Assembly: GCA_051294375.1 (NCBI GenBank)
Contig: CM119267.1
Location: forward strand, 3,336,192-3,400,191
Source of the DNA: Paraspadella gotoi
Lineage: Eukaryota; Animalia; Chaetognatha
Direction of reading: 5' to 3'
DNA: 64,000 nucleotides
Shown here: positions 15,980 to 63,996 of the stretch, piece by piece
Numbering within the stretch: position 1 is the first letter of the stretch
How the letters are laid out: the number at the start of each line of letters is the position of its first letter
Position numbers and translations under genes: made by a program
Notes under the pieces: model-generated
Databases searched by the model: none
Seen by the model: the letters and a program-made list of their open reading frames with translations, nothing else
Told to the model about the DNA's origin: nothing

Positions 15980-17697
15980 TCACCCCTGCTTCCCGAGTTC
16001 GAACTTACGGTAAAACTCGGAGGCGGTGAAAATGGCGGCGTCGATGAAGGAAGCCACCGTAAAAGTTCCTCCGACTACGGCGCATATGGTCGTTAAAAAA
16101 GTGTAGAAGGGCTTCATTCGCTCAGTGTATTTAACTGTAAAAAGAAAACAAAATCGATTACTAAAATCTTTTTTTTTAAATCCTAAATGCATAAGGATCG
16201 TCGCAATCGCATATCATTTCCACACGGACGAATCGATTCCAGCGAAACTTGATTTCCAGCTCAATCACACACTTCTTTACCGTCACACAAAATTTCAAGT
16301 TAATCGCCCAATCCACTTATGAGTAATTAACAATTTAAGCTAAGGACATCAATTTTTTTGCATAATTCATCATAATTCGATGATCTGACATGATCCAAGC
16401 GATTTACCGACGGGGTGGAACCGACGGACCGACAAAGTGAGTCGAAGAACCCGAATCTGCTTTCGGCAGATCCGGCTAAAAATATGAAAAACTGACCAGT
16501 AATGGGACTGAGGTCGTATCTGAACCAAATAGCCGGAAGTATTCTTCCACCTGCAATATTAAAAACAAAATGTCAAAAGATCGAATGTCTATTCGATATA
16601 TTTAACTACGACCGCCAGAACGTACCGTGACCGTACGCCATATAGTTTCGATAAGCAAACGTGTACTGATAGGACGTAATTTCGGCTCCGGATCTCTGCT
16701 CATAAATTGTCGGAACAATCTAAACAAATGATTAAAATTAGCCTATTAAGAATTAAAAATATTAATAGTCGTGGATACACGATTGATAAAGTGGGCTCAC
16801 CTTCATAAAGTAGTCGTGCGAGGATAAAGGGCTGAAATCTTGTTGGTCAGGTTTTGTGACGTCGTGATTGAAGAGAGGATTGAAGGATTTGGGAAAGGGC
16901 ACCTTTGAAAATTGAGGATTGAAGGATTTGGGAAAGGGCACCTTTCAGAATTCATATTCAAACGAAGAACGAGCAATAAAAAAAAAAAAGGATAGAGTTC
17001 TCCTCTCAACTAAATGTCCAAATCCCACCCACCGGGTTTCGCACGATCGTCTCGTCTCCTAAAACGAGAGAGTTGATGTGATGCGACATGTCGGGATCGT
17101 CCGGCTGAACGTCCGCCGAATGAGTCGAAACGTGAAAATTGCCCGGGACTTTGTTGACGAGGAACTTTGCCGTAAAATGGCAGCCCTTTCCTCCGTTCAA
17201 CTCCTCCTTCGTCGTGTCTTCGATGTGACCCACCTCGTGGCGGCCTAGAATGGTATTTGGAGGCGAATAAAACGCGGACAATCAACAGCAGGGAGAACGG
17301 ATATCAAAGAAAGCCAAGATACGACTTGACTTGCAAGATACGATTCGTGAGAATTACCCAGATCGTCTTGGATGTCGAGGCCCAAAAAGTCGCAACCCAT
17401 CCTGGGAAGTGTGATGTCCAACTTGACCGGAACTCGCTCCCTTTCACCGGGGTTGTGGACGAAGAGTTCCGAGTGGAGATCGATTGTGACGAAAGTCAAA
17501 AACTCGGAAAGGAGTAAAAAAGCGATGAAGCAGATGCAGGCGATGGATATGCATGCACCTGGAAAGAAAGAAGGGATGATCATAATCGCGTGCTGAAGGG
17601 AGTAACAGAATAAATTCAACCCACCTGTTACTGTAGGTTGAGTGAGGTCCTTCGGGACTTTCCTATAGATGTCGAATCTTCGCAAATCAAACTGCAT
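15980..17697 (-). CDS. ERGIC1: ER-Golgi intermediate compartment protein 1 (multi-exon)
   Basis: MQFDLRRFDIYRKVPKDLTQPT, GLDIQDDLGRHEVGH, NKVPGNFHVSTH, IWFRYDLSPIT, FLTTICAVVGGTFTVA..KFELGKQG*. Confidence 0.95.
16875..16945. repeat. 39-bp-period tandem duplication at an ERGIC1 intron/exon junction
   Basis: gaggattgaaggatttgggaaagggcaccttt occurs at 16875 and again at 16914. Confidence 0.9.
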
Positions 17698-18049
17698 AGT
17701 TATATCCTTTAAATAAGACTAGTTTATTGGACTAGATAAAAACTGAAGAAAATTTTAAAAAAAAGACGAATGACAAACGTAATTTTCACTCTCCTTGGGG
17801 CACCAGGATCATGAAAGTAACTACATTTAATTGAACTAAGTCTGAAGCTATTTCAACTAAATTCATTATTATTGTACATAATTTGAAACAGTCTTGTTTA
17901 CCTAAATTATTTATTATTTTTGTGTCATTTTGCTACGTATTAATAGATGAAATTGGTACAACATCTCTCATAATTTTATATGAATAAAAATATTAATTGA
18001 AGGCTTTACATATTGTGGATTGTGGTTTGTGGAATGAGTTGAAATTGTA

Positions 18050-18714
18050 CAGAAGGCTTCTTATTATAAAATGTGGTACCCCTTTTTTGTGACCAGAATC
18101 TGTTCCCACCAAACTACCTGATCGAATTTAATGAAATTTTACATTTAGAGTGCTAATGACTATATAAATGGAACTATCGAGGCGAATTTTGATATTCAAC
18201 CCCTGGGGGGCCAAAAAAGGCTAAATTCTTTTTTTCATTTCTCATAATTTTTTTGTAGAATCAGGTTTATCGATGTTTTAAACATATAAAAATATTTTTA
18301 AAACTAAAATTAATAATTTTTTTGCTAATTAATCGGTGTTTGAAGATGCATGGTTCATCGTTTTTCTCCAAATTTTCCAGAATTATTCCAAATCTGACTT
18401 GAACAGCTGATGTTCATGAAGCTGAAACTTATAGTAAAATAATATTTTTGTAGAAATAAATACATTTTTGTGGAAGAGTAAACGTCTGGGCAACTGTTAA
18501 AAAAAAAAAATTTGACCATTTTTTGCCCCCATGAGTGACCCCTACCGGGCCCCATATCTCGGCTCAGGGGTCAAATATTTAAATTCGCCTCGATATTCCT
18601 ATTCACATAGGGATCGTTCATACCAAATTTCATTAAAATCTATTTAATAGTTTTCTAGGAATGTGTTCTGGTCACAAAAAAGGGGTACTACATTTTATAA
18701 TATGAAGCCTTCTG
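18050..18714. mobile_element. MITE (non-autonomous DNA transposon, Tc1/mariner-like TA target duplication)
   Basis: The left end CAGAAGGCTTCTTATTATAAAATGTGGTACCCC..GTGACCAGAA matches the reverse complement of the right end. TA flanks both ends, subterminal inverted matches extend inward, and there is no ORF. Confidence 0.88.
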
Positions 18715-19313
18715 TAATCTTTTAGTGAAAAAAAAAATTCTCGGCCTGTCTTAAAATCAGCCCATATAATAATCTTTTTTAAGTAAAACATTTTGTCTTT
18801 TTATTTTGTATTATTTTCTTTTATACCTTCTCTTTCCGTATTAAATATCTTTTCATTGATATGTCTATAAGATTAGACATTATAGTTTTATAACGAATAT
18901 GTATTAGAAATTACTAATTTATAAAAATAATGTAAAAATTACAGACATGCTCAAAACATAACTGCATTATTTAAGTTTAGTCGTTGTACAAAATGACAGA
19001 CCCAAAAAAAGTATCTTATGTAGACTTTAGTCAGGCTAAATTCACGACTAAAATAACCATTGGTATATTCTTTAATTGAGAGGATAGTTTTTAGGAAATA
19101 CCAATCCAAAAAAAATTGTATTTTAACAATACTTCTTTTTTTTAAATAAAAATATATTCAAACTATACATCCATTCTTTTTTCATAATCAAGATAGTTAC
19201 AATGTGTTTTCAAATACCTAAGAATACAAAATAGTTCACTCAGGACCAAATTGAAGCCATTCTATTTTACACTCGGAACGTATAAATCAAAAAAATGGAA
19301 AATTAAGAGAAAC

Positions 19314-61857: not shown

Positions 61858-62041
61858 TTTAATCAACTCGGTCAATATATTGAATATTTATTCAATTAGT
61901 TAACGCAAAAAGCTCTGAAAGGTTGATATTTAAACGAGAAACAAAATTTATTTTCTATTTCGAAACTTCTTTAAACGCCAAAAAAAAAAGAAGATAAACT
62001 GAAGTCCAAAGAAAAAGCCCAATAATTTCTTATCAAAAGTC

Positions 62042-62622
62042 CTAAGCGGTAAGCAAGCAAGTGCCCCCGGCCTCCTTGATCTTCTTCTCCGCGGCCGCGC
62101 TGAAGAACTTGGCCTTGACGATGAGCGGCGTCTTCGGCAGGTGACCCTTGCCGAGAACCTTGAAGTAGCCGTGCTTGGTGACGTCGAGGACAGACGCCTT
62201 GCCCGACGGCGGAGATCGCTGCTCTTCGGGAAGAAGGGACAGCAACTGGAAAAACGACAAAAAAAAACACGTCAAAATTGATGGGCCGACAAATTTTTCA
62301 GTCAACAATAACCCACTTTGTCCAGATTAACGATGGGGCAGTGCATCTTGTTTCGTTTCATATGAAACGTCCTCATGCCGACTTTCCCAAAGTATCCCGG
62401 GTGATACTTGTCAAAGTTGATTCTGACAAAAAGAAAGAATAAGAATTAAATTAATGATTAAATGGATATTCACCGACCGAAAAGGCCTCCTCACCGGTGA
62501 TGATGTTGTCCACCGGCGTTTCCTCGACCTCCGGGATGTTTGCGGTGTTTGCCGATCCGTCCGTGACCGTGGCTCACGTGGCCGCGCAACTTTCTCGTCT
62601 TCTTGGGCTTCTCTTTCGACAT
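62042..62622 (-). CDS. RPL27A: 60S ribosomal protein L27a (uL15), 3 exons
   Basis: [62 protein letters not shown]. Confidence 0.96.
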
Positions 62623-62853
62623 TTTGACAAAACAAAATTTTCTGCTGGCGTAAAAATTATCTAGAAAGACGTTTAACGCGATACGTAAATTCGGCGAAGC
62701 AACGAAAAATAAACTGGCATCGAAATCATATATAAAAGAAACAATGATATTATAATATAATAATGAGTATGAAGTCCGAAGATATATTTGTACATTTCTG
62801 GACGAGCCAAAAAAAAAAAAAAAAAAAAAAACAAATAAAAAAACGGCCATAGT

Positions 62854-63996
62854 TCATTTCTTCTTGCGTTCCGGGGCGCATTTTGGGCAGAACCATTTGC
62901 CTTTTGGTTTGGTGGTGAGATCGACGCAGCCAAAGTGGAACCACTCGATGGGGCAGTCGGGATTGTCGCAACCGATCATTTCGCCGTACGATACTTGATG
63001 ACACAAGCAGTAAGTGGGTTCGTTGGGATCGACGGGCATGTCAAGGACGTCTGACGTCAAAGGAAATTAGATCTATGATTTATGATCTACGATTTACGAT
63101 AAAGCGGTTTTTGTTAAAATGAAATAATCGAGAAACAAATCGTATGCATAATATCTTTTTTAAAATTGGAAATGCTTAGTACCAGACGCGGCGACGGATA
63201 TTGGAAGGAGGGCGTTGAGGGAGACTTTGGAAGGGGATTCGGCGACGGCGCCGGCGATCTTCGCCTTTTTATTTGATTTCGTCTCCTCTTTGTCCTCCGG
63301 CTCTTTTCTCTTCTGATCAACAACCACCGAAGAGATAAGTAAATTATATGTGATAAATGAAAGATTATATCAGATTATAATCGCTCACCTTTTGTTTTTT
63401 GGATTCCGCCGCGGAAGACTTTCGTCCGGCTCTTTTGCTCGTAACGGGCTCGGTTTCCCCAGCCGGGTTGCCTCGGGCGTTCATGGCCTTCTCCTTGAGA
63501 TCCGCCTCGAATCGCGCCAAGTCCGCGTCGAGTTTCCGGATGTGTTTGTCGATCATGTCGTAAGTCTTTAAAAAAAAATTAAAATGTTAAAATATACGAT
63601 TTTTTATAGACGACGTCAGTAGCCACGCAAACTACCTGCATGGCGAGCGAGAGTTTGTCATCACCGTACTCTTTACATTTGGTGAAATTTTTGTTGATTT
63701 CGCCAATCCGTTTACATTTCTCTCCCGAAGAATTCGATTTGGCGGTTCTCATGTAGTCCTCGGCGAGATCGTCTATTTCGGTCAACAGGTCCTAGAACGG
63801 CGACGAAGATCGTATTAGCAAATACATACAAAGTACATTACTCAAACTTTATTCATTTATGTCCTACTGAAACTTCCGATTCGCACACCTGCGCTCTGGC
63901 ATCCAAATCCGCCATCAAGGTGAAATTCCGTTTCAGTTCCGTCGGCAAACTTTCCAAACTGTCCAAGTAATGCTCCAAGTACATAGCGGTAGTCAT
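62854..63996 (-). CDS. ING5: Inhibitor of growth protein ING4/5 (PHD finger)
   Basis: [74 protein letters not shown]. Confidence 0.92.

Follow-up and report, generated by a model that had tools for sequence, protein, structure and literature searches.

The 64-kb window analysed here (the whole stretch of 64,000 nucleotides) carries between positions 15980 and 63996 a run of 21 genes arranged head-to-tail on the minus strand, each with an ATG and a stop codon. Their functions are unrelated and mostly housekeeping; 17 of the 21 give a Pfam match over the curated cut-off, and the four with support below it are the SRSF, SELENOH-like, acidic membrane protein and ApoL-like genes. The row of co-oriented, unrelated genes proposed by the first-pass annotation is thus confirmed. 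Among the 286 plus-strand ORFs of at least 45 aa between 14020 and 64000, the 123 submitted to the Pfam scan (103 of at least 75 aa and 20 shorter ones lying in gaps; two long ORFs within a minus-strand gene body are among those left out) gave no match over the cut-off and a single weak one (E 0.006), and no plus-strand gene was found amid the run. A tRNA scan found none, and an Rfam scan gave no match. Curation of the window gave 74 GT-AG introns, with a median length of 83 nt.

Read in the direction of transcription, the run starts with the PHD finger gene ING4/5 (62854..63996), with four introns seen as RNA joints. Because just 4 nt separate its ATG from the window edge, the right end of the run is open and the run may extend upstream. 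It is followed by RPL27A (62042..62622), which is also represented by an RNA contig, CSTF2 (59701..61857), ENDOG (58052..59436; its RNA contig starts at 59646, 210 nt upstream of the ATG) and an SLC38A10-like transporter (54555..57783), for which there is also a spliced RNA contig. The next gene (53448..54190), with an RNA-supported intron, a CxxU motif and an in-frame UGA, encodes a selenoprotein that we take to be SELENOH-like; its candidate SECIS lies at about 53345-53400, and its exon 2 is frameshifted in the assembly. A selenoprotein of the SelU/PRXL2 type with a UxxC motif (51526..52558) has a candidate SECIS at about 51305-51345, and a 5' exon joined by cis-splicing may lie at about 52890-52930.

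The central part of the run includes an acidic repeat protein with a C-terminal membrane anchor (47957..50287; a 607-codon ORF of no family), preceded by a gap of 1238 bp in which its own promoter is a candidate, a multi-domain FKBP (45358..47518) with a strong acceptor 2 nt ahead of the ATG, and an AKAP7-like 2H phosphoesterase (42508..44424) preceded by a 933-bp gap. The ApoL-like gene 113 bp after AKAP7 (40582..42394) is a lead only, based on three long ORFs and an atlas lead of 0.85, and its exon 1 is interrupted in the assembly. An SRSF3/7-like gene with a sub-threshold RRM (38863..39981) is the probable first gene of a second tight block. It is followed by MRPL40 (37601..38374), FANCF 117 bp farther on (36560..37483), BTB-zinc finger B after another 87 bp (34556..36472; strong acceptor 3 nt ahead of the ATG), its tandem paralogue BTB-zinc finger A (32477..34258), CWC22 with MIF4G, MA3 and an RS-rich tail (27736..32219) and a NAPE-PLD-like metallo-beta-lactamase (25931..27467). 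Then come a BTB-Kelch gene (22465..25360) whose 5'UTR probably has two cis-spliced introns, a matrin-type zinc-finger protein (19314..21851) and ERGIC1 (15980..17697). A MITE-like element without assigned strand (18048..18716), with 92-nt inverted arms that are 84% complementary, lengthens the longest gap of the run, which shrinks by about 670 bp without it.

Beyond ERGIC1, a minus-strand candidate for a small 22nd gene (14704..15186) belongs to no family and has weak atlas matches. The run is ended by beta-tubulin (12360..14018, plus strand; Pfam), the sole plus-strand gene found, and a second minus-strand block with DCAF12, tetraspanin, V-ATPase subunit F and KAT7 (2703..12247; all Pfam) lies behind it. 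We rejected the possibility that beta-tubulin is nested in a coding intron of DCAF12, because the latter starts with an ATG of its own at 12247, closely preceded by a stop in frame. The length of the run exceeds chance: with genes oriented at random, only about 0.005 runs of 22 would be expected in 22,000 genes.

The ten stop-to-ATG distances listed in the first-pass annotation (87-297 bp) are all exact; the remaining ten gaps, out of 20, none of which it had listed, measure 364-1616 bp and exceed 500 bp in seven cases (889, 933, 1238 and 1616 bp among them). Five of the 20 gaps are shorter than 250 bp and ten shorter than 300 bp, distances that include UTRs, the gaps at the transcript level being shorter; the two selenoprotein gaps contain 3'UTRs with candidate SECIS elements. 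The 500-bp rule, by which Oikopleura operons were called (PMC11067885), divides the run into eight units of 6, 1, 2, 2, 7, 1, 1 and 1 genes.

Acceptors ahead of the ATGs had been quoted correctly for FKBP, BTB-zinc finger B, SelU and KAT7, but CSTF2 reads CCTTTCAG and not TTTTCAG. For SelU, where a strong donor lies 311 nt upstream, the claim that no exon is evident ahead of the acceptor is open to doubt. With the X15 gap included, 10 of the 13 gaps of up to 500 bp lack, upstream of the acceptor, any donor that reaches the 25th percentile, whereas such a donor is present in 7 of the 8 longer gaps. Acceptors are modestly enriched before the ATGs (13 of 21 in sense, 6 of 21 in antisense; Wilcoxon p 0.026); compared with shuffled sequences, no more than 3 of the 21 score better at p<0.05. 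Predicted acceptors lie, among other positions, at 61915, 59458, 57836, 54255, 52578, 47521, 44466, 38393, 36476 and 32284.

The RNA data are contigs of one run, X1, covering 53.1-64 kb, in which 5 of the 20 junctions are testable; X2 and X3, from other organisms, gave short matches only. We infer the RNA status of X1 from the splicing of its contigs (all 15 joints listed, of 21, read CT..AC, that is, GT..AG on the minus strand); contig depths were not used for gene ranking. A single spliced contig of 3741 nt runs from 58009 in the 3'UTR of ENDOG through SLC38A10 into SELENOH, and the ENDOG and CSTF2 contigs reach simple repeats from both sides. Three short gaps are covered by RNA while introns are uncovered; DNA contamination as the source of this cover was rejected because intron-containing bins have exon-only depth. 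Thus, one junction of the five is bridged by one contig, two are covered up to a simple repeat, and two (ING4-RPL27A and RPL27A-CSTF2) are bridged by no reconstructable contig, uncovered stretches being no proof of absence. A contig spanning two genes does not prove one transcript molecule. At the right end of the run, polycistronic units are supported by the continuity of RNA over short gaps.

A search of the same contigs for a shared non-genomic leader at AG sites gave one positive site. The RPL27A contig, whose loose end is TTTAAACAA, starts with the non-genomic TTGTTTAAA, and the joint falls precisely on the AG acceptor (62660..62662, minus strand; genomic AG at 62662-62661, RNA tail joined at 62660), which is the best-scoring one within 100 nt of the RPL27A ATG. 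TTGTTTAAA is the 3' end of chaetognath SL forms 2-4 (Marletaz 2008) and the longest suffix common to the four leader ends compared, which would account for the assembly having kept just 9 nt of the 36-nt leader. The match includes the AAA end, where the genome has TAG, and its chance probability is at most about 0.0014. TTGTTTAAA followed by GT, as in a cis donor, does not occur within the 64-kb window. At least one member of the run thus carries, as a 9-nt tail, a spliced leader that is joined at an AG acceptor and is missing from the local DNA. The match makes an arrow worm (chaetognath) the likely source of the DNA, on the evidence of 9 nt from one site in one run of one study. The proposed trans-splicing is directly supported at RPL27A, but no leader tail is among the loose ends listed for CSTF2, ENDOG, SLC38A10 and SELENOH (six X1 rows listed, 14 rows of all runs beyond the listing). 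Seven of 693 candidates are MRPL40 homologues at 55-60% identity; metagenome scans gave five distant loci (33-44% identity), from which the leader tail is absent.

Leader trans-splicing and operons in chaetognaths have already been published (PMC2481426; PMC12460157). In Spadella, RPS14-PCNA is an SL-resolved operon (Marletaz 2008, PMC2481426). In P. gotoi, Piovani 2025 (PMC12460157) reports operons of up to nine genes with less than 250 bp between gene models, nearly half of the genes trans-spliced, 18% operonic, and ordinary open-chromatin promoters. A published Spadella BAC has all 14 of its oriented non-transposon gene rows, over about 120 kb, on one strand, and long one-strand clusters may therefore occur genome-wide; our literature searches gave no count of such clusters.

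We suggest that the 21-gene run probably represents about 5-8 transcription units, namely two long operons together with a few units that are short operons or individually promoted single genes. The long operons would comprise the 6 genes from ING4 to SELENOH and the 7-8 genes from SRSF to NAPE-PLD or Kelch. RNA polymerase II would start at the first gene of each block and read through the gaps of 90-370 bp; each upstream mRNA would be cut and polyadenylated, and the U-rich AG acceptor ahead of the next gene would receive a capped leader from an SL RNA. Promoters, predicted as they are from unit breaks placed by gap length alone, would sit in the gaps of 0.6-1.6 kb, and whole units would be biased to one strand. 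The blocks given by the 500-bp rule (at most 7 genes) do not exceed the nine genes of the longest operon reported in P. gotoi. Five to eight units falling on one strand by chance (1/16 to 1/128) account for the run about as well as one giant unit does. In the Spadella BAC, the same-strand bias persists over multi-kb gaps, which this chain of operons leaves unexplained.

A single kinetoplastid-like polycistronic unit of at least 21 genes and at least 48 kb, processed throughout by the spliced leader, seems unlikely to us. It agrees with the absence of gaps over 1.6 kb (the longest being inflated by the MITE), with the SECIS-bearing 3'UTRs that fill part of the selenoprotein gaps, with the position of ING4 at the window edge and with the one-sided Spadella BAC, and randomly oriented units at P. 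gotoi operon numbers would give only about 0.1 runs of 21 per genome. However, eight random units yield the same run once in 128 cases, and the window was selected for its run; the longest published chaetognath operon, under the 250-bp rule, has nine genes, and P. gotoi, in which roughly half of the genes lack trans-splicing, has open-chromatin promoters of the ordinary kind. Accordingly, of the long polycistronic units approaching kinetoplastid-style clusters that were initially proposed, the RNA-covered gaps at the right end speak for polycistronic units, but with seven gaps over 500 bp and two of five junctions unbridged the data do not show a single 21-gene or kinetoplastid-like unit. It is conceivable, though doubtful, that the housekeeping genes of arrow worms are grouped on one strand in clusters that span 50-120 kb, contain 15-25 genes or more and are read as very long polycistronic units. 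The limit of nine genes in the literature would in that case reflect the 250-bp cut-off, and the trypanosome genome plan would have been approached partway by an animal rich in introns.

At the other extreme, the run might consist mostly of single-gene units with compact promoters in the 3' end of the upstream gene and short-outron SL trans-splicing, the contigs being merged by UTR overlap. Most trans-spliced P. gotoi genes are indeed non-operonic, contigs can merge transcripts that overlap, 12 of 21 gaps contain CGCG motifs (counted without a control), and chaetognaths are reported to have no operon-specific leader, so that a leader on a gene does not prove an operon. We nevertheless consider this arrangement improbable, since gaps of 87, 113 and 117 bp would have to accommodate an acceptor as well as a 3'UTR and a poly(A) site, and the 21-fold sharing of one strand would be unmotivated. 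A complete lack of trans-splicing here, in a host that is not a chaetognath and with the 9-nt tail due to cis-splicing of a 5' exon, to the assembly or to chance, could appeal to the small size of the leader evidence, but it is highly improbable given the exact joint at the best acceptor and the agreement with the published leader suffix against genomic TAG; any cis donor outside the window could be joined to the acceptor only by bypassing ING4 entirely.

The mechanism, trans-splicing with operons, is not new for arrow worms, and it is the scale that stands out: 21-22 genes, against about two in the mean animal directon (bioRxiv 10.64898/2026.07.29.740908) and 7-9 in the longest published animal operons cited here. 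With the Spadella BAC as a second species of like one-sidedness, at stake is whether most promoters of individual genes can be lost over tens of genes in an animal, which would bear on the origin of trypanosome-style transcription.

The closest likeness is to the chaetognath SL operons themselves (PMC2481426 and PMC12460157), with which the run shares the 3' end of the leader, the joint at an AG acceptor and adjacent, tightly spaced, unrelated housekeeping genes on one strand. The proposed blocks of 6-8 genes fit the nine-gene maximum of the P. gotoi operons, whereas the whole run (21, perhaps 22) is over twice as long as the longest of them; the nine-gene operon described there has ubiquitin and proteasome genes, which are absent from the run. 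Tunicates and flatworms, with operons of up to 7 genes in Ciona (PMC7986045) and up to 9 in Schistosoma japonicum (PMC12582326), likewise use one leader pool for operonic and single genes, without an operon-specific form, and have operons defined by strand and distance, but their leader sequence differs and most units, as stated for flatworms, have two genes. The SL2 operons of C. elegans (PMC2776167) are also polycistronic housekeeping units resolved by trans-splicing; however, nematodes dedicate SL2 to downstream genes, whereas chaetognaths are reported to have no such leader and the 9-nt tail found here is common to several chaetognath forms, and the C. elegans units are near-randomly oriented, unlike the 21-gene run. 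With the trypanosomatids, in which the mean directon has about 30 genes (same preprint), the run shares the kinetoplastid-type size of tens of unrelated same-strand genes, but its genes are intron-rich (the 74 introns and RNA joints), not largely intronless, and about half of chaetognath genes do without trans-splicing.

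All 21 genes from ING4/5 (ATG at 63996) to ERGIC1 (stop at 15980), when rebuilt from the sequence, lie on the minus strand; under random gene orientation, 0.005 runs of 22 would be expected per 22,000 genes. Pfam matches over the curated cut-off were obtained for 17 of the 21 (64 ORFs scanned), and none of the 123 plus-strand ORFs scanned (286 in total) reached it. Four minus-strand genes were recognised otherwise: SRSF by a sub-threshold RRM, the SELENOH-like gene by an RNA-supported intron and the CxxU motif, the acidic protein by a 607-codon ORF, and the ApoL-like gene by an atlas lead of 0.85. 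The labels ING4, SLC38A10, CWC22, NAPE-PLD, KAT7, and SELENOH go beyond the Pfam domains and are presumed. Exon models of several genes are incomplete or frameshifted, and start and stop codons were checked separately. The frame breaks in SELENOH (53567), AKAP7 (about 43350), the ApoL-like gene (about 42350), and SRSF (about 39230) look like assembly indels; at 53567, RNA and window differ by 4 nt. FKBP has a probable GC-AG intron (46005–46090).

The stop-to-ATG gaps (n = 20) measure 87, 113, 117, 184, 231, 257, 264, 268, 268, 297, 364, 438, 488, 570, 600, 613, 889, 933, 1238, and 1616 bp. The ten lengths quoted in the first-pass annotation were exact on re-measurement, and the ten absent from its list are all longer.

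For the right end (53100–64000), spliced RNA contigs come from run X1, whose share of sampled words from 30–39.9 kb was 0.81; they skip introns, and the 15 joints displayed out of 21 are all CT..AC. A depth model from five spliced contigs came within 3 units of the observed depth in 26/28 bins, an agreement partly by construction because the five contig ends were fitted from the same bins. The unfitted, intron-containing bin 56376–56739 has exon-only depth (87.6) and the SLC38A10–SELENOH gap is completely covered (depth 279.8), which rules out genomic DNA as the source of the gap cover. A single 3741-nt contig leads from 58009 in the ENDOG 3'UTR through SLC38A10 to SELENOH; a contig over two genes is no proof of one molecule. 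The ENDOG contig starts at 59646, 55 nt past the CSTF2 stop; simple repeats just beyond the CSTF2 and ENDOG stops interrupt adjacent contigs. No bridging contig was found in X1 for ING4–RPL27A or RPL27A–CSTF2. The five RNA-testable junctions thus comprise one bridged by a contig, two covered as far as a repeat, and two without a bridge.

The proposed trans-splicing was borne out at one site, where the search of RNA contigs for a non-genomic 5' leader at AG sites found it. The RPL27A contig has a loose end of 9 nt at 62660, on the sense strand TTGTTTAAA, which stands in place of genomic ...CTTTCTAG and is joined exactly at the AG that ranks highest among acceptors within 100 nt of the RPL27A ATG (matrix from 74 introns of the window). 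TTGTTTAAA followed by GT is absent from the whole window. In the accessible part of Table 3 of Marletaz 2008 (PMC2481426), chaetognath leader forms 2, 3, and 4 terminate in TTGTTTAAA and form 1 differs. TTGTTTAAA is the longest common suffix of the four leader ends available for comparison, form 1 excluded, which would account for the 9 nt left in an assembly of several leader variants. The probability of a chance leader match in one of 30 loose ends is 0.0001–0.0014; no leader was seen in the other five X1 loose ends, among the 16 of 30 listed (six from X1). Judged by this leader, the animal is very likely a chaetognath; protein searches added no independent evidence.

An acceptor scoring no lower than the 25th percentile of real acceptors occurs within 100 nt of the ATG in 13/21 gaps; for the opposite strand the figure is 6/21 (p 0.026). 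Since the gaps are T-rich in any case, just 3/21 score better than dinucleotide shuffles. The claim that such acceptors have no upstream exon survives in part: no donor of the same grade lies upstream in 10/13 gaps of ≤500 bp, versus a donor in 7/8 longer ones (X15 counted in throughout). Cis-spliced 5' exons are probable for both SelU and the Kelch gene, and some acceptors would thus not be orphans.

A 500-bp rule divides the run into eight units (6, 1, 2, 2, 7, 1, 1, 1), a 650-bp rule into five, and a 1000-bp rule into three. Random units would all share a strand in 1 in 128 cases for eight units and 1 in 16 for five. If units are oriented at random and operons are as numerous as in P. gotoi, a genome should contain about 0.1 runs of 21; the run is therefore unusual, yet one transcript is not forced. 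A single 21-gene transcription unit seems to us unlikely, even if the long gaps, partly accounted for by SECIS-bearing UTRs and a MITE-like element (18048–18716, 92-nt inverted arms, before ERGIC1), do not prove breaks either. A series of mostly single genes, each trans-spliced, seems about as unlikely. We rather favour a chain of spliced-leader-resolved operons, in which two long blocks (6 and 7–8 genes) would be polycistronic and resolved by trans-splicing, and a few internal promoters would divide the chain.

Adjoining selenoprotein genes at 51526–54190, SELENOH-like (CxxU) and SelU-like (UxxC), each combine an in-frame UGA with a candidate SECIS hairpin. An indel-rich patch sets X1 apart from the window in the SELENOH 3'UTR (53186–53238), so X1 probably represents another individual or allele. 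Outside the run, beta-tubulin (plus) and DCAF12 (minus) start head-to-head 112 bp apart (12247–12360); both have an acceptor shortly upstream of the ATG and DCAF12 an upstream GTAAGT donor, so that either an overlap of the two 5' ends or minus-strand transcription through tubulin is likely. A minus-strand pair of small ORFs (14704–15186) matches no family; its second part gives the impression of a mitochondrial targeting sequence.

Trans-splicing and operons are already known for chaetognaths; the first-pass annotation was right on the former and probably on the latter. The accessible part of Piovani 2025 (PMC12460157) reports for P. gotoi 10,197 trans-spliced genes, 18% of genes in operons (<250 bp between genes), a maximum of nine genes, no operon-specific leader, and a lack of gene-body methylation, with which the window's CpG observed/expected of 1.33 (no depletion) agrees. 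Its main text does not contain “strand”, “orientation”, or “head-to-tail”; the accessible part of the F. enflata preprint yielded no operon analysis, and our literature search no published count of long same-strand runs in chaetognaths. For Spadella BAC 35A21, the accessible text of Marletaz 2008 (PMC2481426) describes an RPS14-PCNA operon and remarks on the shared orientation of other genes there. Its Table S5 gives plus in 14/14 oriented non-transposon rows, g1 to g35 (about 120 kb), leaving out transposon and recombinase rows and one unoriented row and taking the g28 start as a misprint; the four minus rows are all transposon-labelled. Grouped at 1–5 kb, the rows form 6–8 units on one strand throughout (1/32 to 1/128). 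The strand bias of this run and of the Spadella BAC is a lead worth following, testable at once in existing genomes. As far as the accessible parts of the sources go, operons reach 7 genes in Ciona (PMC7986045) and 9 in flatworms (PMC12582326), are called by a 500-bp rule in Oikopleura (PMC11067885), and have a model in C. elegans (PMC2776167), and same-strand runs average about 2 in animals versus about 30 in trypanosomatids (bioRxiv 10.64898/2026.07.29.740908).
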